A stretch of DNA of 64,000 nt from Chlamydiales bacterium (GCA_028278035.1 JANQFC010000077.1:73323-137322); one strand, 5' to 3'; shown: positions 1 to 20,169, numbered from the stretch's first letter. Made by a program: numbers and translations. The notes: generated from the sequence alone by a model not told the origin.

Positions 1-2159
1 GTTTGAAATTCTATTGAGTATTGGGTTTTTTGTGATATTTTATCCCAAAGTATTTTGAAATCAGCATTTAGTTCAATTCTTTTATTGTATCTAATTTTTT
101 GACGGTTACGAGCATCTTTAACAAATTCACGAGGCAGAAATTTTTTCATTCGATTAATAATAGCTTCATCCATATTTATAAAATTGTCCGGTAGATTTAA
201 AGAAAAACCTGGATGATCGGGTTTAAAATTTTGTGTAAAACTACCTTCTTTATCAATAAAACCTTGTTTTTGACAATGAACCCATAATTCTTTTGATTCT
301 TCTTGGGAAAGATAATTTGTTCCTGTTGCATTAAGAAGCTGGGTAAAAGCAATTTCTGAAAGACGTCCAAATTTAAATTTTCCACTTGGATCTATCGCTT
401 CTTCAATATCTTTTTGAAGCTCTTTTGCAAAATTCTCAAAAGATTCATCGGCAATTATTGTAAGTTTGTTGATTTGCTCATCATAAATACGTTCTCCTTG
501 TTGATTTACAGGCAAACGTAATCCTCTTCCAATTGTTTGTCGACGTTCTCTAATAGTTCCCATTTCTCGAAGTGAGCATATTTGGAATACATTTGGATTA
601 TCCCACCCTTCTTTTAGAGCTGAGTGGGAAAAAATAAAACGTAAAGGTTCATCAAGATTAAGAAGTCGTTCTTTATCCTTCATAATCAATTCATATGTTT
701 CTTCATCCCTAGCTGTTTTACCAGAAGTGTCCAATTCTTCAATAATTTTCCCTTTCTTTTTATCAGCTGAAAAATATCCTCCATGCACCTCATTTGCTGC
801 ATGAGGTATCACATCTTTATATGTTGTCATATTGCTAAGTTCATTGTAGATTTCTTCAAACCATATAGCCAGCTTTCCCTTTTGAGGGTTGCCATTTTCA
901 TCATATCCTCGATAACTTTTTACATGATCGATAAAAAAGAGAGAAAGCACTTTAATACCTTTCTCTTTGAACTTTTTTTCTTTAATGAAATGTTCTTTAA
1001 TTACTTGTCGTAACTGGCTTTTCATTCGATCATCTCTGATTCCATCAGTATCTTGTTCAAGCTTTAAAATAATACCATTTTGAAATTCAATATATTCATT
1101 ACCGGGTTCTGCATTAATATTAATTACTAAATATCCTTCATAATCAGATCTTTGTGTTTGTTGAGCTAGATCAGTTCCATGTTTAATTTTAATCTGTTTT
1201 TCTCGTGGACCATTTATGGAATTTTCAAAAATAGTTACCTTTGCTTGAGGACTTTTTGAGCTTTTAGGCCAATATCCAACAGCATCTAAGCTTATTAAGG
1301 TTTTATTAAAATCACGTGTATTGTTGGAATCAATCACTTCAAGTTGTTTTACAATTCGCATATCATAAGCTTTTATAGGATCTAGATAATATAACAGATT
1401 ATAAGGATTTATATGCGTAGCTGAATATCTCAAAGCAAAAAGCGGGTTTAAATCATTTATAGCTTTTTGTGATTTAGGAGTATTGTCTACACTCTGAGGT
1501 TCATCAATTATTACTATTGGTCTAGTTGTTTGAACATATTCGGCAGGAGTCCTTCCGGATAATTTATCTTGTTGTTGATGGAAAATATTAACTTCTTTTT
1601 GAAATGCTTGAATATTTATGATCATAATCTGAATTTCATTATTTCTTGCAAATTGCCGTACTTTATTAAGATCTTTAGATAAATATACAAAATCATCATA
1701 AGGAATATTGTCATAAAGATTTCTAAAATGTTCTTTCATCACCTTTAAAGAAGAAATAACCCCTTCTCGAATAGCTATTGAAGGGACAACAATGATAAAT
1801 TTTTTGAATCCATATATTTTATTAAGTTCAAAAATTGTACGCAAATAAACATATGTTTTTCCTGTGCCGGTTTCCATTTCGATTGAAAAATTAGGAAAGG
1901 AGTAGAAAGAGTCATATTCAATTAATGATTGTGATTTAGGTATGTTATTTTTGATTTGAATCGAATGGAGATTTTTTAGTACTTGTTCATCAGGAAGAGT
2001 GTGGTTATTTCCTATACCTAATTCATTTATAAAATGGTCTTTTATTTGGCTAAATTCTATCTTGAAATCATCCTGATGAGGCAATCCTTCAAATAAATCA
2101 GTTGTGCTTTTTATAGCTCCAAGCTGATATTCAAGATTTGAATCAAATTTTAGTTTCAT
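1..2159 (-). CDS. res: Type III restriction enzyme Res subunit (helicase-nuclease), partial; the 3' end lies beyond the window edge
   Basis: It is absent from the ORF track because its stop lies left of position 1. I translated the minus strand from ATG 2159-2157, and the frame stays open to position 1 (about 719 codons). Motifs are METGTGKTYVY (helicase I), IIDEPQS (II), SHSALKEGWDNPNVF and QTIGRGLRLP (VI). The ATG lies 4 nt after the mod stop. Confidence 0.85.
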   Translation of the reverse strand, partial: MKLKFDSNLEYQLGAIKSTTDLFEGLPHQDDFKIEFSQIKDHFINELGIGNNHTLPDEQVLKNLHSIQIKNNIPKSQSLIEYDSFYSFPNFSIEMETGTGKTYVYLRTIFELNKIYGFKKFIIVVPSIAIREGVISSLKVMKEHFRNLYDNIPYDDFVYLSKDLNKVRQFARNNEIQIMIINIQAFQKEVNIFHQQQDKLSGRTPAEYVQTTRPIVIIDEPQSVDNTPKSQKAINDLNPLFALRYSATHINPYNLLYYLDPIKAYDMRIVKQLEVIDSNNTRDFNKTLISLDAVGYWPKSSKSPQAKVTIFENSINGPREKQIKIKHGTDLAQQTQRSDYEGYLVININAEPGNEYIEFQNGIILKLEQDTDGIRDDRMKSQLRQVIKEHFIKEKKFKEKGIKVLSLFFIDHVKSYRGYDENGNPQKGKLAIWFEEIYNELSNMTTYKDVIPHAANEVHGGYFSADKKKGKIIEELDTSGKTARDEETYELIMKDKERLLNLDEPLRFIFSHSALKEGWDNPNVFQICSLREMGTIRERRQTIGRGLRLPVNQQGERIYDEQINKLTIIADESFENFAKELQKDIEEAIDPSGKFKFGRLSEIAFTQLLNATGTNYLSQEESKELWVHCQKQGFIDKEGSFTQNFKPDHPGFSLNLPDNFINMDEAIINRMKKFLPREFVKDARNRQKIRYNKRIELNADFKILWDKISQKTQYSIEFQ

Positions 2160-2163
2160 GGTT

Positions 2164-4092
2164 TTATATAGTTTTGAATTCAATTTGGTTATGTTTTTCT
2201 CGACTCATGTTGTAATCTTTAATAGTTTGAACAATATTTATTTTAAATTGATCATCACTTCCAAAAGCAGAATCTAAACAAATAAATTGAATAGGCTCAG
2301 CTTTGATTACTTCATGAATTAATTCTTTTGTTATTTTCTTTGCCAAACATATAAGAAGATTTCCTTCTGCTATAGAGAATACAGAGGTGTTTGCTAAATG
2401 AATAGTTTCTATTTTTTCTGTTGGCGTAAAACCAGCTTTTATAAGAATTTCATATAATAAATCTTCTTGGGTAGCATCTAGATTAATGTGATCAATATAT
2501 AGATCGAGGTGTTCTGCAATTTTTTCTGAAGGAGTATCTGATGAAAGTTTTTGCCATTGTTTAAAGTTAGATTTATCGAGTTTAAGAACTTTGAAGCCTA
2601 GGTCTTGATTTGATTCAGTAAAATTAAGAGAATCTTCCTTTTCTTTATTAATTTTATTTATAACTCGACGAATACGTTCTTTTCCAATATCGGCTATTGT
2701 TTTATAACCTGCTTTGAAAGCTTCGCTATCTTCAGCACATGGTTCTGGAAGTTGGACTAAGATGAATTTATTGTTACTTCCATTTTTTTCATTAAGATCT
2801 AGAATTGCATGAGCAGTTGTTGCAGATCCACAAAAAAAGTCTAAAACAATATCATTTTTGGTTAAGGCTTGCTCAATAAATATTTTTATAAATGTTGAAG
2901 GCTTAGGAAATTTTAGAGTTTCATTGTTCATTAATTCTCTTAATTCCTTGGTTCCTTTTGAAGTATAATCCGTATTAATCATAGAGGAAAATCCAGTAAA
3001 AGAGTTTAATAATTCATTTAAGTATCTTTTAAATCTAGGCTTTGAATGAGGATTCTTAGGCCATAAAATTCTCTTTTCTTGAAGTAACTTTTCAAATTTA
3101 GATTTTTGAAATCTCCAACCGTTCTCAGGAGATGGCTCATAATTTAATCCTGTTTTTGGATTAGTTATTGTATAATGTAAGTTAGGCCTTTTATCCTTTG
3201 CTGCGACTCCATCCATGGGTGAACTCATCCAATCGCCTCTGGGATCATTATCAGGATTTATATATTTATCTTTATTAATTTCTTTACCTCTAATTCTAAC
3301 TCCTAATTTTTTCGAATAACAAAGTACATACTCATGATCATTAGACACTCCTGTTAAGGAACGACTGTCAACATTTTGACGACTATGCCAGATCATTTGG
3401 GACATAAAATTATCTTCTCCAAAAATCTCATCACATATCTTTCTTAAATTACTTACTTCATTATCATCAATTGAGATAAAAATAACCCCATCATCCTTTA
3501 GCAAATTCCTTGCTAAGTACAACCTTGGGTACATCATGTTTAACCATTTAGTATGAAAACGACCTTCATTAGCAGTATTAGTACTAAATTTCTTCCCATC
3601 TTCATCAGCTAAGCCGGCATATTTTAAATAAGTTTCAAGTGATTCACTAAAGTTGTCTGGATAGATAAATTCTTTTCCTGTATTGTATGGAGGATCTATA
3701 TAGATCATTTTTACTTTGCCATAATAACTTTTTTGTAAAAGCTTTAAAACTTCTAGATTTTCCCCTTCTATAAAAAGATTTGCAGTTGTGTCGAAATTAA
3801 CTGATTCTTCTTTACAAGGTTTAAGAGTAGCTGTGCTTGGAGTTTGTATTAATCTTAGAGATTCTTTTTTACCCGGCCAATCCATATTATAGCGTTCTCT
3901 TCGATTTTCAAAAGCTTCTGAAAAGACTCCTAGCTCGGCTTTTAGTTTTTCAAAATCAATACTTTCTACAAGCTCACCATCTTCATTTTTGGATTCTGTA
4001 AAAACTGAAGGAAAAAGAGATCTAAGTTGGTTCTTTTTTTCAACAGTAATATTAAGCGAAGTCCCATCTAATTTTTCGATAGTAGTTTCCAT
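2164..4092 (-). CDS. mod: Type III R-M Mod subunit, beta-class N6-adenine DNA methyltransferase
   Basis: 642 aa. Motif IV (IYIDPPYNTG) precedes motif I (DFFCGSATTAHA), with a variable region between them, which is the type III Mod order. SD AAGGAG lies upstream of the ATG. Confidence 0.85.
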   Translation of the reverse strand: METTIEKLDGTSLNITVEKKNQLRSLFPSVFTESKNEDGELVESIDFEKLKAELGVFSEAFENRRERYNMDWPGKKESLRLIQTPSTATLKPCKEESVNFDTTANLFIEGENLEVLKLLQKSYYGKVKMIYIDPPYNTGKEFIYPDNFSESLETYLKYAGLADEDGKKFSTNTANEGRFHTKWLNMMYPRLYLARNLLKDDGVIFISIDDNEVSNLRKICDEIFGEDNFMSQMIWHSRQNVDSRSLTGVSNDHEYVLCYSKKLGVRIRGKEINKDKYINPDNDPRGDWMSSPMDGVAAKDKRPNLHYTITNPKTGLNYEPSPENGWRFQKSKFEKLLQEKRILWPKNPHSKPRFKRYLNELLNSFTGFSSMINTDYTSKGTKELRELMNNETLKFPKPSTFIKIFIEQALTKNDIVLDFFCGSATTAHAILDLNEKNGSNNKFILVQLPEPCAEDSEAFKAGYKTIADIGKERIRRVINKINKEKEDSLNFTESNQDLGFKVLKLDKSNFKQWQKLSSDTPSEKIAEHLDLYIDHINLDATQEDLLYEILIKAGFTPTEKIETIHLANTSVFSIAEGNLLICLAKKITKELIHEVIKAEPIQFICLDSAFGSDDQFKINIVQTIKDYNMSREKHNQIEFKTI

Positions 4093-4117
4093 CTTTTTTT
4101 CTCCTTGGAAGTTAATG

Positions 4118-7048
4118 TTAAATTATTTTCCATTTAATTGTAAAAAGAGTTTCCTTTTCTATCTTTTGTTTCAACTGCTTTTCAACATTTTCTAATAATT
4201 TATCTTTTTGTTTTTCTATGTTTTTTGTTGCTTCATCGTATTCTTTCCACGCAATATTATATTTTGTTTCTAAATCTCGGATCTGTTTTTGTATTTTTAA
4301 TTTTTCAGGTAAGTTAATTCCTGAACGAGCCTCTTTTTTTAATGCTTTTATTTGATGATCAAGTTCTTTTAATAAAGTCTTTTGACTTTGTTTTTTATCT
4401 CCTGCCCAATTGTCAAGTTTATTCATTTCATCATCGAAAAACTTTCCGTTTTTTTCTTCGATTTTAGAAAGAAGAGTTGATACATAATTTTGTTCTAGTA
4501 GCACAAGTTTCTGGTGATATTCTTCGGTTGCTTCCCATGGTGAAATAAATGTTGAGGGAAGTTGAAATATTTTTTTTATAATTTCCTGATCAATAGGGTT
4601 CTCATTTTCATCTATTGCTGAAAAAATAATCGCATCCTGTATTTCAAAAGCATCTACTGTATACATTGATACTTTTAATGTACCTTTCATTCCAACTAAT
4701 GAAGCTAGAACAGAAATAATTCCCTCACTATTAGAATAATCAAAGACAATTTCAGCGTCAGGACATTTGTGTAATTTGCTTTCAGAGATAATTTTTTGGG
4801 CTAAAGGATGACTGGGACGATATATATGAGCATCTTCAATATTTTTACCTATTTTGTAAGGGCCTGGATCTATCTGTTCATTCGAGAATGGATTGTTTTT
4901 CAGAGTGAATGAATATAAGTTATCTGAGAAATCAGCATTATCTTTCAAATAATATTGAGTAATTTTCCATAGCCAATTTTCATAGGTGTTTAAAAACAAA
5001 CGGCTATTTTTTTCATTAAATTTTAATTTTTCATGAACTTCGGTATCAAAATTTTCTAATAGTTTTTGGCGTGTATCGGATAAATTATTTTTAATCTTTT
5101 CATCCATCTCTTTTTGTAGCTCATCGAATGCTTTATTGATTTCTTCAGTTGTACGGCATGTATCATAAATTGAAGCAATTCTCTTTTCAAAGTCTACGCC
5201 CGATTCAATTGAGCCTAGAATTTCATCGCTAGCTCCAAAAACGCCTTTAAATAAGTTAAACTTTTGATCTAATAATTCATAAATTCGCTGATCTGCAGCA
5301 TTTTTACGATTTACAAAGTTTATTACCACTACATCATGTTTTTGTCCATAACGATGGCAGCGCCCAATTCTTTGCTCTATTCTTTGTGGATTCCAAGGTA
5401 AATCATAATTTACTAGTAAAGAGCAAAACTGCAAATTTACACCTTCAGCTGCAGCTTCCGTTGCAATCATAATTTCGGCGTAATTTTTGAAATAATCTAC
5501 TAAAGCAGCTCTTGTATCTGCTGTTTTGGAGCCTGTAATTTTGTCGGTGTTTTGATTTTTTTTAAGCCATTCATTATAAATTTGTTTTGTAGTTTGATTA
5601 TTATTCGAACCATTGAATAGTAAGGTTTTATCTTTGTAACCATGCTCAGCAAGTAGTTCTAAAAGATACTTTTGTGTAATTGTAGATTCTGTAAATATAA
5701 TAGCTTTTTTATTGGCTCCAAGTTCTTGAGCCATTTCAAAACCCTTTTTAAGAGCTATTATTAAAGCTTCTCCTTTAGAATTTTTCCAAATACTTTTTGC
5801 TAGATTACAAAGTTTTTCAAGATCATTTTTTTCTTTTTTAATTAGTTCTATATCTTCTTTAGAATAAATTATTTCCTCATTTATATCATTTTCATTTTCT
5901 TCATTATTCCATTCTTCTTTTAAATCAGATAGATTTTCATAGTCTTGTTCTAGATTTTCCAATCCCAAATCTCTCATATTTCTTTGTCGCTCATCTTTTA
6001 CGAGAATGTTTTGGAGTTTATTTGATAAATTGCTAAGAGTATTTGCAATAGCAAAAGATGAAGAAGCTAATAGTTTACGTAAAACAAGAGATATTAGTTG
6101 CCGTTGACTTGCAGGCAAGGCAAAAAGTTTATCTCGACGTAGATATTCAGACATTCCATTATATAGGTCTATCTCTTGCTCAGAAGGTGTATAGTCTTCT
6201 GTTAAAGCTAATCTTTTTGTAAATTTTATATATTCTAAAACTTGACGTCTTAAAGTGCGGGAACATAAGGATTTTAATCTATTTTTTAAATTTGAAAATA
6301 ATTGATTTTTAGGGTTGTTTTCATCAGTAGAATAATCGTTAACATCTTGTTCTAATGATACGCGAGAATAATTTGATTTAAAGCTTGTTAAATCACCAAA
6401 TACGTGTTCATCAATAATATTAACAAGGCCAAATAGTTCAAGTAATGAATTTTGAAGAGGTGTTGCGGTCAATAATACTTTTGAAACGTCTAGTAAAGCA
6501 TCTTTTATTTCTTTAGCTATTTTATTTCCAGATTTATATATATTTCGAAGGTGATGAGCTTCATCGATAATAGCTACATCCCATTTTGTTTGTTTAATAT
6601 ATGCAGCTTTTGTTTTTGCAAAATTATAAGAACAAATAATTACGGCTTCGTTCTGATCAAATGGATTTAAATTTCCATTTTTTATAGCTTCATTAAATGA
6701 TTTTGTCTCTAAAATTATAGAAGGAAGAAAAAATTTTTCTTGTAATTCATCGTTCCATTGTTTACGCAAACTTGCGGGTACTATAAGTAATATTTTTCTT
6801 TTTCTTTCTGCCCATTTTTGCGATAGAATTAATCCGGCTTCTATAGTTTTTCCTAGCCCGACCTCATCCGCTAATATTACTCCTTTCGAAAGAGGAGAGC
6901 GAAAGGCAAAAAGAGCAGCTTCAATTTGATGAGGATTTAGATCAACCTGAGCATTAGAAAGGGTTGCGGATAATTTTTCCAAATTATCTGAAGCGCATCT
7001 CTTGGTAAGCTCATAAGCAAAATATTTAGCATGATAATCAGAAGTCAT
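4118..7048 (-). CDS. SNF2-family DEAH helicase/translocase with a long uncharacterised C-terminal region
   Basis: 976 aa. Motifs are LADEVGLGKTIEAG (I), IIDEAHHLRN (II), LLLTATPLQNS (III) and NYDLPWNPQRIEQRIGRCHRYGQ (V-VI). It is the first gene of the SNF2-mod-res operon, with 25 nt before mod. Confidence 0.85.
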   Translation of the reverse strand: MTSDYHAKYFAYELTKRCASDNLEKLSATLSNAQVDLNPHQIEAALFAFRSPLSKGVILADEVGLGKTIEAGLILSQKWAERKRKILLIVPASLRKQWNDELQEKFFLPSIILETKSFNEAIKNGNLNPFDQNEAVIICSYNFAKTKAAYIKQTKWDVAIIDEAHHLRNIYKSGNKIAKEIKDALLDVSKVLLTATPLQNSLLELFGLVNIIDEHVFGDLTSFKSNYSRVSLEQDVNDYSTDENNPKNQLFSNLKNRLKSLCSRTLRRQVLEYIKFTKRLALTEDYTPSEQEIDLYNGMSEYLRRDKLFALPASQRQLISLVLRKLLASSSFAIANTLSNLSNKLQNILVKDERQRNMRDLGLENLEQDYENLSDLKEEWNNEENENDINEEIIYSKEDIELIKKEKNDLEKLCNLAKSIWKNSKGEALIIALKKGFEMAQELGANKKAIIFTESTITQKYLLELLAEHGYKDKTLLFNGSNNNQTTKQIYNEWLKKNQNTDKITGSKTADTRAALVDYFKNYAEIMIATEAAAEGVNLQFCSLLVNYDLPWNPQRIEQRIGRCHRYGQKHDVVVINFVNRKNAADQRIYELLDQKFNLFKGVFGASDEILGSIESGVDFEKRIASIYDTCRTTEEINKAFDELQKEMDEKIKNNLSDTRQKLLENFDTEVHEKLKFNEKNSRLFLNTYENWLWKITQYYLKDNADFSDNLYSFTLKNNPFSNEQIDPGPYKIGKNIEDAHIYRPSHPLAQKIISESKLHKCPDAEIVFDYSNSEGIISVLASLVGMKGTLKVSMYTVDAFEIQDAIIFSAIDENENPIDQEIIKKIFQLPSTFISPWEATEEYHQKLVLLEQNYVSTLLSKIEEKNGKFFDDEMNKLDNWAGDKKQSQKTLLKELDHQIKALKKEARSGINLPEKLKIQKQIRDLETKYNIAWKEYDEATKNIEKQKDKLLENVEKQLKQKIEKETLFTIKWKII

Positions 7049-7231
7049 TATAATCCCTTAAAAATTTTTTAATGAGTAATTATTTCATTCAACGAATAAT
7101 ATTATATCAGAATTAATTTGCAATTAAAACTAAACTAATTATTTACTATTAATTTATATGAATATTAATTTTAATAATTAATTAAATCCTTTTTTTGTTA
7201 AAATAGTTTCATATTAGAAAAGGAGAATACT

Positions 7232-8011
7232 GTGGCTAAAACAAAAATATTATTTAATTCTAATTCCTCCGAACCTATGCCTCTGAGCAGGTCAAAAATA
7301 GATCTTTTCCTTCAATGCCCTAAATGCTTTTATTTAGATAGAAAGTTAGGGATATCTCAACCTTCCGGAGCTCCTTTTACACTAAATAATGCTGTTGATG
7401 CATTATTAAAAAAAGAATTTGATATTTATAGACAAAACAAATCTTTACACCCTTTTCAAATTAAAAATAATATTGATGCTATTCCTTTTGATCACCCTGA
7501 AATTGAAATATGGAGAAATCAGAAAAAAGGCGGAGTAAGTTATTTGCATGAACAAACAAATTTTTTAATATATGGTGCAATAGATGATGTCTGGATCCAA
7601 CCAAATGGAGAGCTTATAATTGTCGATTATAAAGCAAAAGCCTCCAAAGACGATCCAAGTACTTTTTTAAAACCTAAGACTAAAAAAGACGGCGAAATAA
7701 TTAAAACTGAGAAATATAAAATTAGTTATAAAAAACAATTAGAAATTTATCAGTGGAGCTTTAGAAAAAAAGGTTTCAAAGTTTCCAATACAGCCTATTT
7801 TATTTTTGCTAATGCTAAAAAAGATGAAGATTCATTTAATGATCAATTAATTTTTGAAAAAAGTCTTATTCCCTATGAAGGTAATGATGATTGGGTTGAA
7901 TCGACAATTATGGCAATTCATGAGTGTTTATCACAGGATACTCTGCCTGCCGCTGCTCATGATTGTGATTATTGCAATTATCGAAACAAAATTCATGACC
8001 TGGAGAAATAG
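7232..8011 (+). CDS. Cas4-like PD-(D/E)XK nuclease with a putative 4-Cys Fe-S cluster
   Basis: 259 aa with a GTG start behind SD AAGGAG. Nuclease motifs are GAIDDVW, IIVDYKAK and QLEIYQW. Cysteines sit at CPKC (N-terminus) and CDYC (C-terminus). It is transcribed divergently from the SNF2 gene. Confidence 0.65.
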   Translation: MAKTKILFNSNSSEPMPLSRSKIDLFLQCPKCFYLDRKLGISQPSGAPFTLNNAVDALLKKEFDIYRQNKSLHPFQIKNNIDAIPFDHPEIEIWRNQKKGGVSYLHEQTNFLIYGAIDDVWIQPNGELIIVDYKAKASKDDPSTFLKPKTKKDGEIIKTEKYKISYKKQLEIYQWSFRKKGFKVSNTAYFIFANAKKDEDSFNDQLIFEKSLIPYEGNDDWVESTIMAIHECLSQDTLPAAAHDCDYCNYRNKIHDLEK

Positions 8012-8576
8012 TAGCTAATTTTTCTCGAAAATCAACTTCAGGAAACTTAACAAGCTTAAAACACTTCAATCTTGAGTAAAATCTATCACCAAATTTATTA
8101 CGAAGATCCCTAATAGAACAATTAGTCGAAACCACAGTGAGCCTGTTCTGAGTGTATCTTACATTGAAAATTTCCAAATATTGGCGTTGAACTCTGTCAC
8201 TTGAACTTTCTACACCAAGATCATCTAAAATAAAAAGAGTACTTTCAGAACACATTTTGATAATGCTATCGGCATCACGATCACTCTTTCCCATAGAAGC
8301 ACTTAAGAGTTGATAATCTAATTGAGCACTTATTTTAAAAATAATGAAAGGATAAGGTTGTAATTGCCCCCAAAACTCTCTTAATAGTGCAATTGAAAAG
8401 AATGTCTTCCCACACCCAGGTCTTCCTTGCAGGATTAAGGAGGTTTTATTTCTGCTTGTAAGCCATTCTTTCCCCCATGTAACCAAAGTTGGGTCTAATA
8501 AACATCTATTATCAAAGGAGGCATTGCAATTATCTTTCCCAATTCCTACTTGATTGATAAACTCCTCATATTTCAT
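7908..8576 (-). CDS. DnaC/IstB-like AAA+ ATPase (helicase-loader type)
   Basis: Walker A is GRPGCGKTF, Walker B is LFILDDLG, and there are STNCS and FYSRL elements. I prefer ATG 8576, with SD AAGGA 9 nt upstream, over the track's TTG 8597. The C-terminal ~35 aa run antisense through the end of the Cas4-like gene. Confidence 0.75.
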   Translation of the reverse strand: MKYEEFINQVGIGKDNCNASFDNRCLLDPTLVTWGKEWLTSRNKTSLILQGRPGCGKTFFSIALLREFWGQLQPYPFIIFKISAQLDYQLLSASMGKSDRDADSIIKMCSESTLFILDDLGVESSSDRVQRQYLEIFNVRYTQNRLTVVSTNCSIRDLRNKFGDRFYSRLKCFKLVKFPEVDFREKLATISPGHEFCFDNCNNHNHEQRQAEYPVINTHELP

Positions 8577-8580
8577 AAAA

Positions 8581-9078
8581 CTAATCCTTAATTGCAAAAT
8601 TTATAATGTTTGCTATAGGAAAATCCAAATCCTCACACAATTTTGTATTTTCTTTTGTTCTTAAAGATCTTAAATCTTTATTGTGGGTTTTCATTGGGTT
8701 GCCTTTTGGGTTTTGTTGGGGATTTTGCTGGTTAATAGATTCTGAAAATTGAACTATTATCCATCTGAAAATGGTAAATCTGTTGGGGGTTTTGTTGGGG
8801 CTCTTTTTAAGCAAACTTGCTTTTTCAAAGTGTTTTACTCTAGTTCGTATCTCATCTTCTGTTAAACCTGTTTCAATAGCACACTGACATCTACCAAAGA
8901 TAAAACTAAATGGACGCAGCATTATCTTCTGATTATCATGAATAACAACTCTCTCATCTCGGTAGCATCGACCAAAAGACCAAACAACAAATGCTGTTGT
9001 TTTAGGATCTTGAAACCATCCAGCTAAGCGAAAATATTTTGGTATCGGATCAAAGAAAAAAGGGATTTCTGAACTCAT
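8581..9078 (-). CDS. Replication-initiator-like winged-helix protein (phage/plasmid DnaD/O-like N-terminus)
   Basis: 165 aa. It has the pattern of a wHTH replication protein (GRCQCAIETGLTEDEIRTRVKHFEKASLL) and sits directly upstream of the DnaC-like gene. The assignment rests on context and pattern only. Confidence 0.45.
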   Translation of the reverse strand: MSSEIPFFFDPIPKYFRLAGWFQDPKTTAFVVWSFGRCYRDERVVIHDNQKIMLRPFSFIFGRCQCAIETGLTEDEIRTRVKHFEKASLLKKSPNKTPNRFTIFRWIIVQFSESINQQNPQQNPKGNPMKTHNKDLRSLRTKENTKLCEDLDFPIANIINFAIKD

Positions 9079-9139
9079 GCTTATAAATCCTTTTATCTAC
9101 CCAACTCTCTCATCAATTGAAAATACCGCTGAACATCAA

Positions 9140-9340
9140 CTAAAACCATTTCTGACCAAAAGGTTTGATAAACACATCAGAAATGCCCAAAGCATCTTTA
9201 GTATGAATTTGCCAACGAAGTGTTGTCTCCTTGATAAAAGGATATTTTTTGCAAAACTCTTTTACTCCCAAATAGACAGGTACCTCAAATTGAGCCTTTA
9301 CACCTTGATCTTGATTAATTATTGACTGTGATAAACTCAT
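9140..9340 (-). CDS. Excisionase/AlpA-like HTH DNA-binding protein
   Basis: The likely true start is ATG 9340, preceded by AGGGGAG 6 nt upstream; the track ORF extends to 9433. The 66-aa product carries LGVKEFCKKYPFIKETTLRWQI ... IKPFGQKWF, typical of HTH_17/Xis-like proteins. Confidence 0.55.
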   Translation of the reverse strand: MSLSQSIINQDQGVKAQFEVPVYLGVKEFCKKYPFIKETTLRWQIHTKDALGISDVFIKPFGQKWF

Positions 9341-9498
9341 AACACTCCCCTTTCTTGGAAAATTAAATTGTCTGTTTTTAACAACTGTTTTATATTTGTA
9401 GACAGTATTTTTTGTGTCTACTATCAAGGACAATATTTACTTGATAACAACAATTGATACTACAAGCTACAGTTGTTGGTAATATAAAATTTATATCC

Positions 9499-9523
9499 AG
9501 ACTTTATAAAAATTCTAAAGTCT
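9499..9523. promoter_or_regulatory. Perfect 8-bp inverted repeat AGACTTTA-N9-TAAAGTCT in the divergent promoter region
   Basis: The arms are 9499-9506 and 9516-9523. The repeat ends 17 nt upstream of the ATG at 9540 and lies between divergent genes. Confidence 0.4.
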
Positions 9524-9539
9524 TTAAAAAGAAAATGAT

Positions 9540-10577
9540 ATGACAAAAAAAAATTTTAACCTAAAAAATGAAAAATCAATATCAAATACAGAACCAGCTA
9601 AGGATGTTTTAGATCTTTATCAAGATCATATAACATCTTTTTATGATTCCCTTCTTGTTCAAGAAACATTGAGAAGAAAAGAAAAGAATCTTCCATTCTC
9701 TCAGGCAGAATCAGAAAAATTTTTGAAAGAGATCCAAAAAGCTCTAAAAGGTAAATTAGAAAAATCAAATTCATTTTTAAATAGACAAAATCAAGATAGT
9801 TTTAAAAACCCATTAATTGATAAGGCAAAGAATGAAGGAAAGCTTTCTACTATCAATTTAATGAAAAAAACTTCAATTGAAGATGCCATCTCTGAATGGT
9901 TACTTTCCCTATCCTCCAATACCCTGAAGGGTTATGAAAGAGGTATAAGAGCTCTGATAAGTGAAGGTTACATCCGTTTAGCTGAAAAACAAGACACACT
10001 TAATGCACATCCTCGCACTTTAATCGATTTCTCCAATGTCCCTCACGACTTAATTCTTGAAAAAATTTTCTCCCATGTAACTTGGAGTCCATCAATCAAG
10101 ACGAGAAATGCAACATCTTACAAGAACTTCATCAAGTTCCTGGAGACCAAAACTGAAGGCATTATTACATTTCTTAGAATCAAACCGATGTTCCCTAAAA
10201 ATAAAGAGCCTTCTCCTATCAAAGATTTATCCGCTGATCAAATTAAACAAATTTTGTCTCTTCTTAAAGATGAGAATCTTAGAGATTACTGCCTTGTTTA
10301 CTTATACATATCTTCAGACTTGAAATTATGTGATACTATTAATCTCAGAAAAAAAGATCTAGATCTGAAGAAAAATCAATATGTATGCAGTCTTATACCT
10401 GATTTTCAAAACCTCAGTGATAATGATTATATATTCCGCACAAGGAATGGAAAACCCATTGATCCTATGCAAATTTCTAGAACACTGCAGAGGATTTTTA
10501 AAAAGGTTGGTATATCCGCGGTACCCTTGAAAGATCTAAAAAAATCAGCCGATTTCATAGGAATAGCTTTGAGATAA
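9540..10577 (+). CDS. Tyrosine-recombinase-like protein, catalytically degenerate and C-terminally truncated
   Basis: 345 aa with a SAM-like N-domain (NTLKGYERGIRAL). The box I position reads SSDLKLCD instead of TGLRxSE. The HxLRH position reads KDLKK. The protein stops 11 aa later, before any Tyr nucleophile. Confidence 0.55.
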   Translation: MTKKNFNLKNEKSISNTEPAKDVLDLYQDHITSFYDSLLVQETLRRKEKNLPFSQAESEKFLKEIQKALKGKLEKSNSFLNRQNQDSFKNPLIDKAKNEGKLSTINLMKKTSIEDAISEWLLSLSSNTLKGYERGIRALISEGYIRLAEKQDTLNAHPRTLIDFSNVPHDLILEKIFSHVTWSPSIKTRNATSYKNFIKFLETKTEGIITFLRIKPMFPKNKEPSPIKDLSADQIKQILSLLKDENLRDYCLVYLYISSDLKLCDTINLRKKDLDLKKNQYVCSLIPDFQNLSDNDYIFRTRNGKPIDPMQISRTLQRIFKKVGISAVPLKDLKKSADFIGIALR

Positions 10578-10607
10578 AAAGCCCGTAAGGGTTATTATAT
10601 ACATGGT

Positions 10608-11141
10608 TTGAAAACATCACCATTAAATAAAAGGCCTTTAATGACAACACGTCCTACCATTTCACCAAAGTTAATAGAGCAAGTCAAAATCGAATCAGGA
10701 CATCGATGTGCTATTCCTACATGTTTAAAATTTCCAATTGATGTTCATCACATCATTCCTTACTCAGAGTGTTTAGAACATTCTTTTGATAATTTAATAA
10801 CTCTTTGTACTGAATGTCATGCTAGACATCATCGAACAAAAGAAATTAGTTTAAAAGCGTTACAAACATATAAAAATAATCTAGGATTATTAAATCACCG
10901 ATATGGAGACTTTGAACGAAGATTATTATATTTTTTCTATTTAGAAAAAAAGAAAACAATATTTTTGTCTGTTGGTTTTGAACCTTCAATATTCTTTTTC
11001 CTCCAAGATAATATTATAAAAAAAACTGGGAGAAATAGCGGAGTAAAAACAAGCGGCATATATACATTGGAAGAATACATGTTGACTTCAGATGGAGAGA
11101 AACTGATGGAAAATTTTATGAACGGCCAATTAATTAAATAG
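10608..11141 (+). CDS. HNH endonuclease with an uncharacterised C-terminal domain
   Basis: Motifs are HRCAIPTC...DVHHIIP...NLITLCTECHARHH. An alternative ATG start lies at 10641. Confidence 0.8.
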   Translation: MKTSPLNKRPLMTTRPTISPKLIEQVKIESGHRCAIPTCLKFPIDVHHIIPYSECLEHSFDNLITLCTECHARHHRTKEISLKALQTYKNNLGLLNHRYGDFERRLLYFFYLEKKKTIFLSVGFEPSIFFFLQDNIIKKTGRNSGVKTSGIYTLEEYMLTSDGEKLMENFMNGQLIK

Positions 11142-11218
11142 CCTATATTTAAAGCTCTTACTATCCCTCTTCTCTTGGATATATAACATGGGTAAAGTCC
11201 AAACTTTATAGAGCAGTA

Positions 11219-12166
11219 TTACAAGGAATTACTATCAATAAATTCTACTTTCTCTGAATCTAATCGAAGAATAGCCTTAACTCTATCAATTTTATCTTTT
11301 TTATCCTTTTCAGGATTTTCCTTTTTTATCCGATTAATAATACTAATCTTTTCCCATTTCTTATTTTGGCTTGCGAAAGCAATAGTATTCATTAATTCAT
11401 GGTCATAAATATTGAATGCTAATCCACAAATATATAAATAATCTGCCTGTCTTAACCATTCTTCTGCAAGGATATGATAAGCGAATAATTTATCATAATT
11501 ATTCTTTGATCCATCAAATCTTTCGTAAACTAATTTTAGGACTTCATCTTTGAGATCTTTTTTAACCGAATCAACTAAAGGTTCAATACTTTCTGAAAAC
11601 ACAGAACATTGATAATTTAATTCATTTATAGTTTCAGTTGGAAAAATCATGAGTTGAGGCTCTGTGCACCTTCCATGAAGATAAGCTAAATTTTTAATCT
11701 GTTTATCTCCATTTAGAGTATTATCCCAATTAGTAGTGATTATGGCTGAATCGTAACTATATAATCCTTCACTTTCAAGAAAATCATGACAGCTTTTTCT
11801 CCATTTTATCGCATAATTATCGTTATAACTTTTTCCCATAATTTTTCTGAATGACATTGCCTTGCTTAAATGATGAAGAAGAACAATAATTAGATCTTCT
11901 CCATCAGGCATTTTGGGAGGAATCCATTTTCCTTTAGAAACTAATGCTATTCGTGCAAACCACTCTCTTTCTTCAGCGGCCAAACAACTTAAAGCATGCA
12001 TGGGACCTAATTTAGTTGCATCTGGTAAAAAATAATTACTATTATAATCTTCAGAAAATTTCAGTGCTTGTTCAAGAGGTTCACTTCCATTCTCAATACA
12101 TCCATTTCCAATTAAAAAAACTCTTTTTTTAGCAATATCCTTATTATTTCTCATATTAAACTCCAT
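11219..12166 (-). CDS. Stand-alone SIR2-like (SIR2_2-type) domain protein
   Basis: Landmarks are VFLIGNGCI, IITTNWDNTL, AYLHGRC and YICGLAFNIYDHEL. ATG 12154 is preceded by GGAG and may be the real start. Confidence 0.6.
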   Translation of the reverse strand: MEFNMRNNKDIAKKRVFLIGNGCIENGSEPLEQALKFSEDYNSNYFLPDATKLGPMHALSCLAAEEREWFARIALVSKGKWIPPKMPDGEDLIIVLLHHLSKAMSFRKIMGKSYNDNYAIKWRKSCHDFLESEGLYSYDSAIITTNWDNTLNGDKQIKNLAYLHGRCTEPQLMIFPTETINELNYQCSVFSESIEPLVDSVKKDLKDEVLKLVYERFDGSKNNYDKLFAYHILAEEWLRQADYLYICGLAFNIYDHELMNTIAFASQNKKWEKISIINRIKKENPEKDKKDKIDRVKAILRLDSEKVEFIDSNSL

Positions 12167-12274
12167 TATTAATTTTATTTTTTTTAATAAAGCTCTTCAA
12201 GCAAATTTTTGAAGGTTAATTCTAGCAGCTAAGCTTATATTAATATAATTATCTATACATTTTCATATATCACA

Positions 12275-13349
12275 TCAAACAAAATAATATTCCTTACCAA
12301 ACATCTTCTCATTCATCCTTTCAACAACAAAGCGTGTATGCTCCTCTGTCAAATGAGCATACCTTTTTACCATAACAAGAGTTTTATGGCCCATAGCTTC
12401 TGCTATCTCAGCTAATGTTGCACCATTCATGGCTAAGTAACTGGCAAAGGTATGGCGAAGATCATGGAAGTGAAAGTCAGAAAGATTTGCAAGTTTGGCT
12501 GCTGATTCCCAAGAAGAGCGGATTTGGATAGATTTTGAACCAAAAGTGCTAGGGAAAACAAAAGGACTTAATATCTGACATGACCTATTAGCATATTCCT
12601 TTAGAATATTAAGAGCATGACCTGTAATAGAAACTGTTCTTCTCTCACCATTTTTTGTTTCATGTAAAATTGCTTTGCCCTTTTCCAAATCAATATCCTT
12701 CCATTTAAGATTGAGGATTTCACCTCTTCGCATACCTGTAGCTAATGCAAGAACTACAATTGTATAGAGACAAGGACTTTTACTTGTAAGACAAGCTTGT
12801 AGGAGTCTTTCCTTTTCATCAGGACTAAGAAAACGAATTCTACCTCTTGGCTCTTTGCGTTTTCGTACTTTAGGGACAGGGAGACTCCTTAATCATACCC
12901 CAATCCTCACAAGCAGCCTGAAAAACACATGACAAGGAGCTTCTATAACGATTGAGGGTTGCAGGCGATGCAACTTTTCCACGATAGTTTATTTGTTCGG
13001 ACAATAATTGCAGCTTTTGGGAAATCATAAATGAAGAGATCTTGCCAATAGCAAAACGTCCAAGCTGCTGCTTCCACCATGTAAGCTGTCCAACAAAGGT
13101 TTGGTAATTGCGGGATTCTTTATTTAGAAACTCATTGATATATCTATCGATTACTTCTGATAATGTACATTGTAACGCTTCTGAATTATCAAAATAGGTG
13201 CCCTCCTGCATTGCAGCTTTTGTTTGTATCTCCCACTTCTCTGCCTCTTTTCTGGTTCGAAAGGTTTTCGCTTTTGTGGGATAACCCTTGTTCTTTACGA
13301 TTGCTTGGTAGCGTGGTTTTCCATTTTTATCTTTTCTAGAACGTATCAT
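12275..13349 (-). pseudogene. int: Phage-type tyrosine integrase split by a 1-nt frameshift
   Basis: The N-terminal ORF (13349-12870) ends ...IKESPCP*. The catalytic ORF's frame is open from about 12895 and reads PKVRKRKEPRGRIRFLSPDEKERLL...TGMRRGEILNL...HDLRHTFAS...GHKTLVMVKRYAH. All catalytic boxes are present, but they lie in a frame shifted by 1 nt. Confidence 0.8.
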
Positions 13350-13419
13350 CTCAAACTCCTTTAAATTTGTTTTTCGATGACATTTTCAAACAAAGCAAAA
13401 ACAATACTAAAAATTTTTA

Positions 13420-13452
13420 TTTGTCTGCAATATAATATTTATATCAGACAAA
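13420..13452. promoter_or_regulatory. Inverted repeat TTTGTCTG-N17-CAGACAAA upstream of the integrase
   Basis: Perfect 8-bp arms at 13420-13427 and 13445-13452, about 70-100 nt upstream of the integrase start. Confidence 0.35.
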
Positions 13453-13463
13453 TTTTCTTCGTC

Positions 13464-13483
13464 GGGTGACAAGAGGGTGACAA
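13464..13483. repeat. Tandem direct repeat GGGTGACAA x2 with 11-bp periodicity (candidate arm-type integrase sites)
   Basis: The copies are 13464-13472 and 13475-13483, between the integrase start and the tRNA-Ser 3' end. Confidence 0.4.
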
Positions 13484-13579
13484 AACGCAAAATTACATAT
13501 AAACACAAAACAGCAACACTGCTGTTAGAACTTTACATTTTATTGCTGAGAAGTATGTTTGGACTATAAAAAAGAATTT

Positions 13580-13664
13580 CGGAAGAGGAGGGATTCGAAC
13601 CCCCGGTCCCTTGCGGGACTTCTGTTTTCAAGACAGACGCAATCGGCCACTCTGCCACTCTTCC
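13580..13664 (-). tRNA. tRNA-Ser (anticodon UGA), no encoded CCA
   Basis: I folded it by hand. The acceptor is GGAAGAG/CTCTTCC, the anticodon stem is TCTGT/ACAGA and the loop is CTTGAAA. It has a long variable arm (GTCCCGCAAGGGACC) and T-loop TTCGAAT. Confidence 0.9.
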
Positions 13665-13704
13665 GTAAAAAAGATATTAATATAATAGAAAAAATCTTAA
13701 CAAT

Positions 13705-14736
13705 TTACAAGTCAAATTGTTTTAAAAACCTAAGATCGTTCTCAGTAAAATTTCTAATGTCTTTAATTCCGTATGCAAGCATCGCTAATCTTTCTATTCC
13801 AAATCCTGCTGCATAGCCATAATGCTCTTCCGGATTAATACCACCTGATTTCAAAACCTCAGGATGTATCATACCGGCACCTACTACCTCCAGCCATCCT
13901 GTATATTTACAAATTTTACAGCCCTGACCGGAACAAATAATACATTTAATGTCCCCTTCCATTCCGGGCTCTACAAAAGGAAAATAACTCGGTCTATATC
14001 TAGTTTCTATTTTTTTATTAAAAAGCTTTGCCCAAAATTCGTCCATTGTAGCAAATAGATCAGCAAAACTAACTTTCTTATCTATATAAAAAAGCTCTAT
14101 TTGATGAAAAAACACATGAGACCTAGCTGATATAGTTTCATTTCTAAAACATCTGCCCGGAGCAATACATCTGATCGGCGGTTTGATCTTTTCCATTACC
14201 CTTACTTGAGTATTGCTGGTATGAGTCCTTAAAAGCATTTCTTCAGTTAAATAAAAGGTATCCTGCATATCTCTTGCAGGATGATCTTTAGCAAAATTCA
14301 ATCCTTCAAAATTATAAAAATCAGAATCTACATTAGGTCCAATTTCTACTGAAAATCCCATAGATACTAAAATATCTATAGCTTTATTAAGCATTAACGT
14401 AATGGGATGATTTCTTCCCCAATATTTTCTTCGACCGGGAAGCGTAATATCGATATTTTCAGATTTAAGTTTTATTGATTCTTCTTCTAATAAAAGTCTT
14501 TTCAAAGAATTTTCCAGATGAGAAGTGACTTCTGTTTTGAGATCATTGATCTGCTTGCCAAATAAAGGCTTTTCATCTTTGCTTGCATTTTTTAAAAATA
14601 AGATCAAGCTTTGAAGCAAGCCTTTTTTACCTAGATACTTAATTTTCAGATTCTCAATACATTTAGATGTTTTTGCTTTTTTTAAATCCTGCAAAAACTC
14701 TTCTCTGATTTTACTAATTTCAGTGTTCAGCGTCAT
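13705..14736 (-). CDS. pheS: Phenylalanine--tRNA ligase alpha subunit
   Basis: 343 aa with class II motifs (FRNE..., GFGIERLAML). Confidence 0.95.
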   Translation of the reverse strand: MTLNTEISKIREEFLQDLKKAKTSKCIENLKIKYLGKKGLLQSLILFLKNASKDEKPLFGKQINDLKTEVTSHLENSLKRLLLEEESIKLKSENIDITLPGRRKYWGRNHPITLMLNKAIDILVSMGFSVEIGPNVDSDFYNFEGLNFAKDHPARDMQDTFYLTEEMLLRTHTSNTQVRVMEKIKPPIRCIAPGRCFRNETISARSHVFFHQIELFYIDKKVSFADLFATMDEFWAKLFNKKIETRYRPSYFPFVEPGMEGDIKCIICSGQGCKICKYTGWLEVVGAGMIHPEVLKSGGINPEEHYGYAAGFGIERLAMLAYGIKDIRNFTENDLRFLKQFDL

Positions 14737-19766: not shown

Positions 19767-20169
19767 CTGTCTTTTTATGAATAATGTCTAATATTGCATT
19801 TACAAAGGTCGCACTTTGAGGCGTTGCAAACTTTTTGCAAAGTCTTATAGCTTCTGCTATAGCAACCTTATTCGGCACTTCTTTATTATATTTTATTTCA
19901 TATATACCAAGTCTTAAAATATTTAGCTCTAATTTTGAAATTCGATCAAAATCATAAGATTTTGAACTCTCTTTGATTTCCTGATCTATCGTGCCTAAAT
20001 TCTTTATTACATCATTTACATAAGACTGAGTCATGCAAATATTTTTTTTAGTAGTTTTTAACTGATTCATCATAAATAACGTAAGATCTTTTTCTTCTGT
20101 CTTGATATAATTATATGCAAACAGAATTTGCAGAACAGATTCTCTGAATTTTTGTTTTGGAAGCCCCAT
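19738..20169 (-). CDS. nusB: Transcription antitermination factor NusB
   Basis: 143 aa with a NusB-like helical pattern (RESVLQILFAY..., INEAIRL-type region, FVNAILD). Confidence 0.8.
   Translation of the reverse strand: MGLPKQKFRESVLQILFAYNYIKTEEKDLTLFMMNQLKTTKKNICMTQSYVNDVIKNLGTIDQEIKESSKSYDFDRISKLELNILRLGIYEIKYNKEVPNKVAIAEAIRLCKKFATPQSATFVNAILDIIHKKTDGNTKKQES

Follow-up and report, generated by a model that had tools for sequence, protein, structure and literature searches.

An integrative element of about 16.5 kb in the tRNA-Ser(UGA) gene of a Chlamydiales bacterium, with a frameshifted integrase and sister islands in other chlamydiae

What is the block of non-housekeeping genes that adjoins a serine tRNA gene in the genome of an uncultured, coral-associated Chlamydiales bacterium, how did it come to lie there, and can it still leave? 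The stretch of DNA that we analysed (GCA_028278035.1, JANQFC010000077.1:73323-137322; hereafter the window) is 64,000 nucleotides (nt) long, and an annotation made from its letters alone, here called the sequence-only reading, had proposed that positions 1-13664 are a mobile island anchored in tRNA-Ser. This proposal was borne out by the finding of a distal repeat of the tRNA, of loci without the block in relatives, and of sister islands with complete left and right attachment sites (attL and attR). Very probably, the block is most of an integrative element of ~16.5 kb that was inserted by a tyrosine integrase into the 3′ part of tRNA-Ser(UGA), belongs to a family of such elements in Chlamydiota, carries defence-type cargo, and is now fixed in the chromosome.

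The integration target, on the attL side, is an intact tRNA-Ser(UGA) gene on the minus strand (window 13579-13665; tga anticodon according to ARAGORN), as previously read, and the same order of pheS followed by tRNA-Ser(UGA) is found in the relatives L003, L004, L005, L008, and L010. The attL core comprises 53 nt and covers the tRNA from its anticodon loop (CTTGAAAAC...) up to the 3′ terminus (13580-13632, minus strand). Within the 64-kb window, the tRNA 3′ part is present only once, in agreement with the earlier failure to find one in 1-13579 and with the suggestion that the distal site might lie to the left. To the left it indeed lies. A 16,539-bp Logan contig from a coral metagenome (L001), located in public assemblies through the Mod protein of the island, is 100% identical to window 1-13607 and reaches 2,932 bp further left. 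One end of this contig begins within tRNA-Ser and the other end, CTTGAAAACAGAAGTCCCGCAAGGGACCGG, repeats 30 nt of the tRNA exactly, from the anticodon loop onward. The distal direct repeat of the attL core is thus situated ~2.9 kb left of the first base of the window (L001 16510 onward), and the element, with 16,481 bp enclosed by the repeats and a single 53-bp core added, measures ~16.5 kb.

A direct tRNA repeat at the distal border, the hallmark of a tRNA-integrated island, is therefore present, with 30 nt read as such and 52-53 nt recovered through the assembly graph of the source run and its depths. In this graph, a 52-nt unitig (window 13581-13632, which also starts exactly at L001 16510; depth 25.7) is entered from the tRNA 5′ half (depth 17.3) and from the far end of the island (19.8), and is left towards the integrase end of the island (19.8) and towards a 1,902-nt contig (21.2), which is the two-path shape that arises when a repeat exceeds the 31-nt assembly word. 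The 31-mer common to both repeat copies has a depth of 45, which, together with the two entries and two exits, indicates that the repeat is present twice per genome. The mean depth of the unitig itself is lower than the summed depth of its two paths; we regard the depths of such short contigs as noisy and base the inference of 2 copies on the depth of the shared 31-mer. The chromosomal flanks have depths of 13.8 and 18.1 and that of the island is alike, as befits a fixed, single-copy insertion. Short graph joints with sides of 20-22 nt, which joined unrelated places, were set aside as chance matches or other organisms, and 2 further runs of the same study (X2 and X3), in which the organism is present at 1-3x depth only, added no information on the borders.

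On the other side of the tRNA gene, the pheS-rplT-rpmI-infC segment, previously described as conserved core, is syntenic with related chlamydial metagenome-assembled genomes (MAGs) for at least 10 kb. The comparison with an empty tRNA-Ser/pheS site in related genomes, proposed as a check by the sequence-only reading, had the following outcome: the pheS-tRNA-Ser loci of L003, L004, and L005, the PheS proteins of which are 76-77% identical to that of the present genome, contain neither the island block nor a tRNA repeat in the readable 2 to 10 kb after the tRNA. Furthermore, the 30 nt that follow the distal repeat, at the start of the 1,902-nt exit contig, are CCATTGCAACCAATTCGTACCACTGTTCTC (given as the reverse complement of the consensus) and match the DNA found directly after tRNA-Ser in L003 (ACATTGCAACCAATTCGTACCTTTGTTCTC) and L004 (CCATTGTACCCAATTCGCATCTTTGGTGCC). 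Hence, the ancestral flank of the tRNA gene has been displaced by 16.5 kb and now stands behind the partial tRNA copy. The locus thus combines an unoccupied site in relatives with a displaced ancestral flank, as expected of an inserted island.

The post-tRNA sequence of L003 and L004 encodes the C-terminus of a serine-recombinase relic. This relic of a large serine recombinase lies directly after tRNA-Ser (L003 11160-11600; L004 11047-11955), with its frame running into the tRNA, and the same relic apparently follows the tRNA copy in the present genome, on the 1,902-nt flank contig. Its homologues number 95 in metagenomes, many of them truncated, and several have ...NW.QWRKR as their last residues, at a tRNA-like sequence; the C-terminal peptide expected from the flank contig was found in 0 of the 28 relic homologues that were retrieved (those of the Logan source plus a few more of the 95 matches). 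The presence of such relics at the tRNA implies that the 3′ end of tRNA-Ser is also the target of a second, unrelated element family. Beyond the relic in L003, a 110-nt direct repeat with 72% identity between its copies (11720-11829 and 19851-19960) brackets an 8-kb block with genes for an LCM methyltransferase, an ATP-grasp protein, SHMT, a methyltransferase, a lactamase_B protein, and an aldehyde dehydrogenase, and may represent the borders of another inserted module. In L005, a region devoid of an integrase (11136-14700) encodes a 272-amino acid (aa) unknown protein, an AbiEii toxin, and small open reading frames (ORFs) right after tRNA-Ser. The first post-tRNA bases of this region (GAAACTCTTTATTTTTAG) resemble those of the present island (GAAATTCTTTTTTATAG), and neither a repeat nor an arm motif was found in it; the L005 locus may be an eroded relative of the island.

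The next gene 3′ of tRNA-Ser, on the same strand, encodes the tyrosine integrase (12275-13349, minus strand) and is separated by 230 nt from the 3′ end of the tRNA, so that the integrase adjoins its target tRNA as in other islands of this kind. This adjacency had been recognized before; the split of the gene by a frameshift had not been mentioned. The N-terminal part is a 159-aa ORF (13349-12870) closed by a stop codon, and the C-terminal, catalytic part occupies another frame (~12892 to 12275). The 2 parts are 90% identical to residues 1-159 and 86% identical to residues 153-351, respectively, of the intact 351-aa homologue P0218, and the lesion amounts to one 1-nt frameshift near 12873-12885 in a gene that is otherwise undamaged. 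The C-terminal part matches the Phage_integrase profile (E = 7e-37) and the N-terminus has a weak match to Arm-DNA-bind_4. When the read-through of the frameshift is used as the query, the intact 351-aa homologues are 75-89% identical, and the next group, which includes proteins from Nitrosospira and Nitrosomonas MAGs, is ~50% identical. A second, independent assembly of the run contains the identical frameshifted sequence. With its integrase frameshifted, the present copy would be unable to excise by itself and is probably locked in place.

It remains to be weighed whether this copy is nevertheless still mobile, with the frameshift being a minority variant or a consensus error, or with another integrase acting in trans. 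In favour of this, the gene has a single lesion and retains every catalytic box beyond it, no difference between the repeat copies is seen over the length that was read, which indicates a recent event, and rare variants are lost from assembled contigs. However, the 2 assemblies agree at ~20x with no variant reported, the frameshift site is not a long homopolymer, and all 351-aa homologues are single ORFs, which makes a programmed shift unlikely. On balance, we consider continued mobility of the present copy to be unlikely and retain the interpretation of an inserted element that has become fixed.

The DNA between the tRNA and the integrase (P arm; 13350-13578, minus strand) contains 2 TTGTCACCC repeats located 11 bp apart (window 13466-13483, island strand). 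In L001, TTGTCACCC occurs in 3 copies only, 2 in the P arm and 1 at 134 nt before attR, and a paired pattern of this type recurs in both arms of L001, L008, L010, and L011. From their arrangement, the TTGTCACCC repeats are candidate arm-type binding sites of the integrase. In an alignment of 12 loci, the attR arms split into 2 groups by their paired repeat, with GTCACCC...GTCAC pairs in the first (present island, L008, and L010) and GCACAAA...GCACAC pairs in the second (L017 and L019-L023), which suggests 2 integrase subfamilies with a common core site.

The contexts of 3 integrase homologues were compared and revealed sister islands at the same site. In Chlamydiae bacterium CG10_35_9 (L008/L007), the PheS of which is 67% identical to that of the present genome, pheS and tRNA-Ser are followed by the integrase, a DUF2726 gene, a 340-aa gene on the opposite strand, genes for proteins of 82 and 164 aa, an IstB-like gene, and an AbiEi/nucleotidyltransferase pair. 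This island is 7.3 kb long and its 53-nt tRNA repeat, which begins at the same anticodon-loop position, is complete on one contig. The island of L010/L011 has the same backbone and its own attR, and carries as cargo an HD-domain protein, 2 unknown proteins, and a Gp49-like toxin. L010 also encodes a second, different tyrosine integrase (912-1952; 346 aa; Phage_integrase E = 3e-23), which sits upstream of tRNA-Ser, on the opposite side from the island.

Across the sister islands, the backbone proteins are 61-75% identical. The identities to the L007 counterparts are 73% for the N-terminal part of the integrase, 61% for a recombinase-like protein, 67% for a small helix-turn-helix (HTH) protein, 70% for a 165-aa protein, and 71% for a DnaC-like protein. 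At the DNA level, the present island resembles L007 in 3 stretches only, namely, the integrase region, 2.5 kb of backbone (71.7% identity; window 10506-8024), and the last 165 nt before attR. Homology ends at ~12293 and resumes at 10506, and L007 has its DUF2726 gene in the interval. This distribution of homology over 3 stretches defines 2 cargo slots, one at window ~10507-12292 and the other from 8023 leftwards to the attR arm.

The backbone comprises, in addition to the integrase, a divergently oriented gene and a 3-gene operon (7908-9340, minus strand). The former (9540-10577, plus strand) is divergent from the replication operon and encodes a tyrosine-recombinase-like protein of 345 aa without the catalytic end. 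Its Phage_integrase and Xer matches are weak and cover residues 124-280 only. The protein is 61% and 45% identical to its counterparts in L008 and L010, and all 3 proteins terminate directly after LKDLKK; as judged from this conservation, we regard it as a maintained protein devoid of the catalytic histidine-arginine and tyrosine region rather than a decaying pseudogene. The operon encodes a small HTH-like protein (66 aa; 9140-9340, minus strand), which yielded no family match and is conserved in the sister islands, a 165-aa DnaD-like protein (8581-9078, minus strand; DnaD-like PHROG, E = 1e-4, a weak match), and a DnaC/IstB-like AAA+ helicase loader (7908-8597, minus strand; DnaC-like PHROG, E = 8e-24, with agreeing IstB/DnaC matches in NCBIfam and Pfam). 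The last 38 residues of the DnaC-like ORF (window 7908-8023) have no counterpart in L007 and overlap the 3′ end of a convergent Cas4-like gene. As the DNA homology to L007 stops at 8024, this overlap marks the junction between backbone and cargo.

The reach of the family was gauged with a 20-mer spanning the attR junction (ATCGGA followed by CTTGAAAACAGAAG), which is present in 10 of 185,579 species genomes (one genome per species). Eight of the carriers are labelled Chlamydiota, Parachlamydiales, Parachlamydiaceae, or Anoxychlamydiales, and 2 are MAGs without such a label. In the majority of these genomes, the tRNA-Ser 3′ part comes after the junction, with a variable arm that differs from host to host. 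The sequence-only reading held mobile islands with defence genes to be uncommon in small obligate-intracellular genomes; with the junction in 10 species-level genomes, islands of this kind are not rare in environmental chlamydiae. In a Parachlamydiaceae MAG (L014 929-1611), only ~580 bp separate tRNA-Ser from a perfect 53-nt repeat and the start of the integrase is truncated after ~110 codons, the locus being, as its sequence indicates, an almost fully deleted copy of the same kind of element. The best explanation of these loci, in which we place the same high confidence as in the interpretation as a whole, is a family of elements specific to Chlamydiota and characterized by the integrase, paired arm repeats, a catalytically dead recombinase-like protein, a small HTH protein, DnaD- and DnaC-like loaders, and 2 variable slots. 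We found no description of the family, of its two-slot backbone, or of the dead recombinase-like gene in the literature, which does not prove that none exists.

Slot 1 of the present island (genes at 10608-12166) contains 2 cargo genes. The first encodes a 315-aa AbiH/SIR2-like protein (11219-12166, minus strand) that has no direct family match in Pfam, NCBIfam, PHROGs, or PADLOC. Its homologues form ~135 clusters of proteins of ~300 aa with conserved IGNG, ITTNWD, LHGR, and WGxAFNxYDxE motifs, and among 39 of them, 6 have a weak AbiH match and 2 a SIR2_2 match. The AlphaFold2 (AF2) model of the protein has a pLDDT (predicted local distance difference test score) of 93.8, and its top matches in the PDB are SIR2/HerA, ThsA, and Sir2A, with a probability of 1.0 but template modelling (TM) scores of 0.43-0.45 and E values of ~1e-3. 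The motifs, the weak matches of the homologues, and the modelled fold together support a SIR2-like protein. The second gene of the slot encodes a 177-aa HNH nuclease (10608-11141, plus strand; HNH E = 7e-9).

Slot 2, of ~10.8 kb, occupies window 1-8023 and extends left of the window. Next to the backbone lies a gene for a Cas4-like PD-(D/E)XK nuclease (7232-8011, plus strand), followed by genes for a DrmD-like SNF2 helicase (4118-7048, minus strand; PADLOC DrmD, 695 bits), a type III Mod (2164-4092, minus strand; PADLOC MTase_III, 697 bits), and a type III Res (1-2183 and past the window edge, minus strand; PADLOC REase_III, 950 bits). Residues 6-629 of Mod match positions 3-615 of the 621 of MTase_III. 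Res is complete in L001 (978 aa), where its residues 1-967 match positions 1-969 of the 989 of REase_III, and the 2 genes are 4 nt apart, so that the pair is both adjacent and full length, as a type III pair should be. Left of the window, on the part of L001 that also includes the P′ arm and attR, a 550-aa protein has a weak GapS1 match (40 bits, under the cut-off of 320). The SNF2 helicase scores 690 bits against NCBIfam DrmD_b, under the cut-off of 950, and its DrmD match spans the helicase core. No match to DrmA, DrmB, or DrmC was obtained in the island, which rules out the label DISARM (defence island system associated with restriction-modification) for the SNF2-Mod-Res block. From its profile matches, the block reads as a type III pair that has an SNF2 protein as an additional partner. 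Proteins homologous to this SNF2 helicase over its full length, at 45-50% identity, are encoded in HTH-SNF2-methylase-helicase operons of conjugative plasmids of Rhizobium and Salmonella, and the recurrence of the SNF2-methylase-helicase operon on plasmids marks it as a travelling unit. In the examples from Rhizobium (L012; plasmid p7, NZ_CP072872.1) and Salmonella (L013; plasmid NZ_CP100694.1), a small HTH gene precedes the operon. The Rhizobium operon has an extra DUF262 gene between Mod and Res, and that of Salmonella has an IS256 element and an Abi gene inserted after the SNF2 gene.

Most gene labels of the sequence-only reading agree with these profile matches: Res and Mod match type III profiles over their full length, and the SNF2, Cas4-like, DnaC-like, and HNH labels are equally sound. 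The remaining labels survive in part. The recombinase-like protein does match Phage_integrase, if weakly, and the putative replication initiator is the 165-aa protein with weak similarity to DnaD. The SIR2-like label lacks a direct family match and draws its support from motifs, homologues, and fold, and the Xis-like label likewise lacks a family match and is backed by conservation of the HTH protein in the sister islands.

Searches of the 13 island proteins against Pfam, NCBIfam, PHROGs, and PADLOC recovered no relaxase, coupling protein, or type IV secretion gene that would make the island an integrative and conjugative element. Neither were capsid, tail, terminase, or lysis genes of a prophage detected, PHROGs yielding integrase, loader, nuclease, and HNH categories only. 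A phage satellite, induced and packaged by a chlamydial helper phage in the manner of phage-inducible chromosomal islands (PICIs), would fit the size range of 7-16 kb. It would also fit the gene order, with an integrase, a divergent gene that would act as regulator opposite the small HTH and DnaD/DnaC module, and terminal accessory or defence genes, since published PICIs have a similar gene layout. Yet the same 4 databases gave no terminase small subunit (terS-like), capsid-remodelling (cpm-like), or primase-helicase gene. The known chlamydial phages are small single-stranded DNA viruses, which would be too small to package 16 kb, and we know of no helper phage for a chlamydial island. We therefore rate a satellite as slightly less likely still than continued mobility of this copy, and return to the integrative element moved by its own integrase.

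The composition of the island bears on its age and origin. Its overall G+C content is 30.6% (16,481 bp) and that of the core is 30.9% (window 13666-64000); as the 2 are the same, overall G+C was dropped as a marker of foreignness. Among 32 core ORFs of at least 200 aa, G+C is 31.1 ± 3.0% and G+C at third codon positions (GC3) is 23.5 ± 3.5%, with a maximum of 28.9%. The integrase deviates from these values (G+C 38.4%, GC3 37-48%), the backbone genes have 32-35% G+C and a GC3 of 26-28%, and the cargo genes have 29-31% G+C and a GC3 of 18-21%. The tetranucleotide distance between island and core is 0.173, compared with 0.103 ± 0.011 (maximum 0.127) for core segments of the same size. The element is thus a compositional mosaic in which G+C is deviant only at the integrase. 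The 43-45% G+C previously counted by hand in the integrase was overstated, if right in direction, and the foreign composition claimed from it holds for integrase GC3 and for tetranucleotide usage but not for overall G+C.

That the block is instead old and vertically inherited, at a tRNA-Ser hotspot that other recombinases have shaped, rather than a discrete recent insertion, is highly improbable. Its host-like G+C, the variability of the site after tRNA-Ser in all relatives, with serine-recombinase relics and other defence genes, and the occurrence of sister islands at this site in distantly related chlamydiae would all suit such a history. However, the block is patchily distributed, being missing at 77% PheS identity and present at 67%, the integrases of the latter 2 hosts are 75% identical compared with 67% for PheS, the repeats are perfect, the GC3 of the integrase lies far beyond the core range, and the ancestral flank has been displaced intact.

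Several points nonetheless weigh against the insertion as we describe it. The overall G+C of the island equals that of the host, as would be the case if the donor had a similar composition or the island had arrived longer ago. None of the relatives compared is closer than 77% PheS identity and none belongs to the same species. Direct reading of the distal repeat covers its first 30 nt, and the remainder and the link to the 1,902-nt flank contig are derived from the k=31 graph. The data on the present copy come from a single sample, and the repeat is longer than the word of the k=31 contigs of the source run, so that junctions of an excised form (attP) and of an emptied site (attB) are indistinguishable from attL and attR.

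Starting from the insertion and its borders, the broken integrase, the family membership, and the gene families found here, we propose the following course of events. The attP site of the element would have recombined with the tRNA gene, rebuilding an intact tRNA beside the integrase and leaving a partial tRNA copy, from the anticodon loop to the 3′ end, at the far end, ahead of the original post-tRNA DNA. The anatomy of the locus and the sister islands show that the tyrosine integrase integrates at the 53-bp core that the element has in common with tRNA-Ser. Excision may be helped by the small HTH protein, the excised form may be replicated with the aid of the DnaD-like and DnaC-like loaders, and a regulatory or origin-binding role could fall to the dead recombinase-like protein. 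The cargo of both slots would provide defence, and as restriction-modification systems are known for addictive behaviour, the type III pair may also help to retain the island. In the present genome, the frameshift would have ended self-excision, leaving the island as a fixed single copy. A bolder reading, which we consider improbable, if somewhat less so than the rivals above, is that the family represents a chlamydia-specific, self-replicating integrative plasmid or satellite, with the dead recombinase-like protein as its switch or origin-binding factor, and serves as a two-slot shuttle of defence genes between chlamydiae sharing a host cell. If true, an obligate intracellular phylum would possess a dedicated vehicle for the exchange of defence genes.

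As a kind of island, the element is known, namely, a classical tRNA-integrated island; it is the host group that is unusual. Obligate intracellular bacteria are often regarded as closed to gene flow, and the island represents a working route into environmental chlamydiae. The integrase family and its 53-bp tRNA-Ser target have been reused in at least 10 species-level genomes, with different defence cassettes in each, and the islands are seen in several states, from intact (L008 and L010) through a copy with a frameshifted integrase (the present genome) to a 580-bp remnant (L014). The integrase and its att pair constitute a natural, phylum-native system of site-specific integration, which could help the laboratory genetics of chlamydia-like bacteria, where tools are scarce.

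Among known systems, the tRNA islands of Proteobacteria with P4-type integrases are alike in having an integrase beside an intact tRNA, a duplicated tRNA 3′ part, cargo, arm-type repeats, and a patchy distribution. The present family differs from them in its Chlamydiota hosts, the dead recombinase-like protein, and the DnaD/DnaC loader pair, and the nearest non-chlamydial integrases, those of the Nitrosospira and Nitrosomonas MAGs, are only ~50% identical to the present one. PICIs and other phage satellites resemble the island in size and gene order, whereas no packaging or capsid-redirecting genes were found in it with the profile searches described above. At the level of the cargo, Mod and Res correspond to type III restriction-modification systems through end-to-end profile matches. 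The SNF2 protein resembles DrmD of DISARM, albeit below the NCBIfam cut-off, and the DrmA, DrmB, and DrmC components are absent. The 315-aa protein shares the Rossmann GxG, TTNWD, and LHG motifs with stand-alone SIR2/AbiH abortive-infection proteins and has a confident model with SIR2 proteins as its best matches, but differs in the lack of a direct family match, in its TM scores of 0.43-0.45, and in having no partner sensor domain. The nearest published chlamydial case that we found is Pam100G of Protochlamydia amoebophila UWE25, which is described as spanning 100 kb, with 17-bp repeats on either side and genes for an F-like conjugative transfer system (PMC548262). It is likewise a chromosomal island of an environmental chlamydia with short direct repeats, read as evidence of gene flow into obligate intracellular bacteria (PMC548262). 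Compared with Pam100G as described there, the present island is smaller, at 16.5 kb, and free of transfer genes, and is distinguished by its tRNA-Ser site, its 53-bp repeat, and its defence genes.

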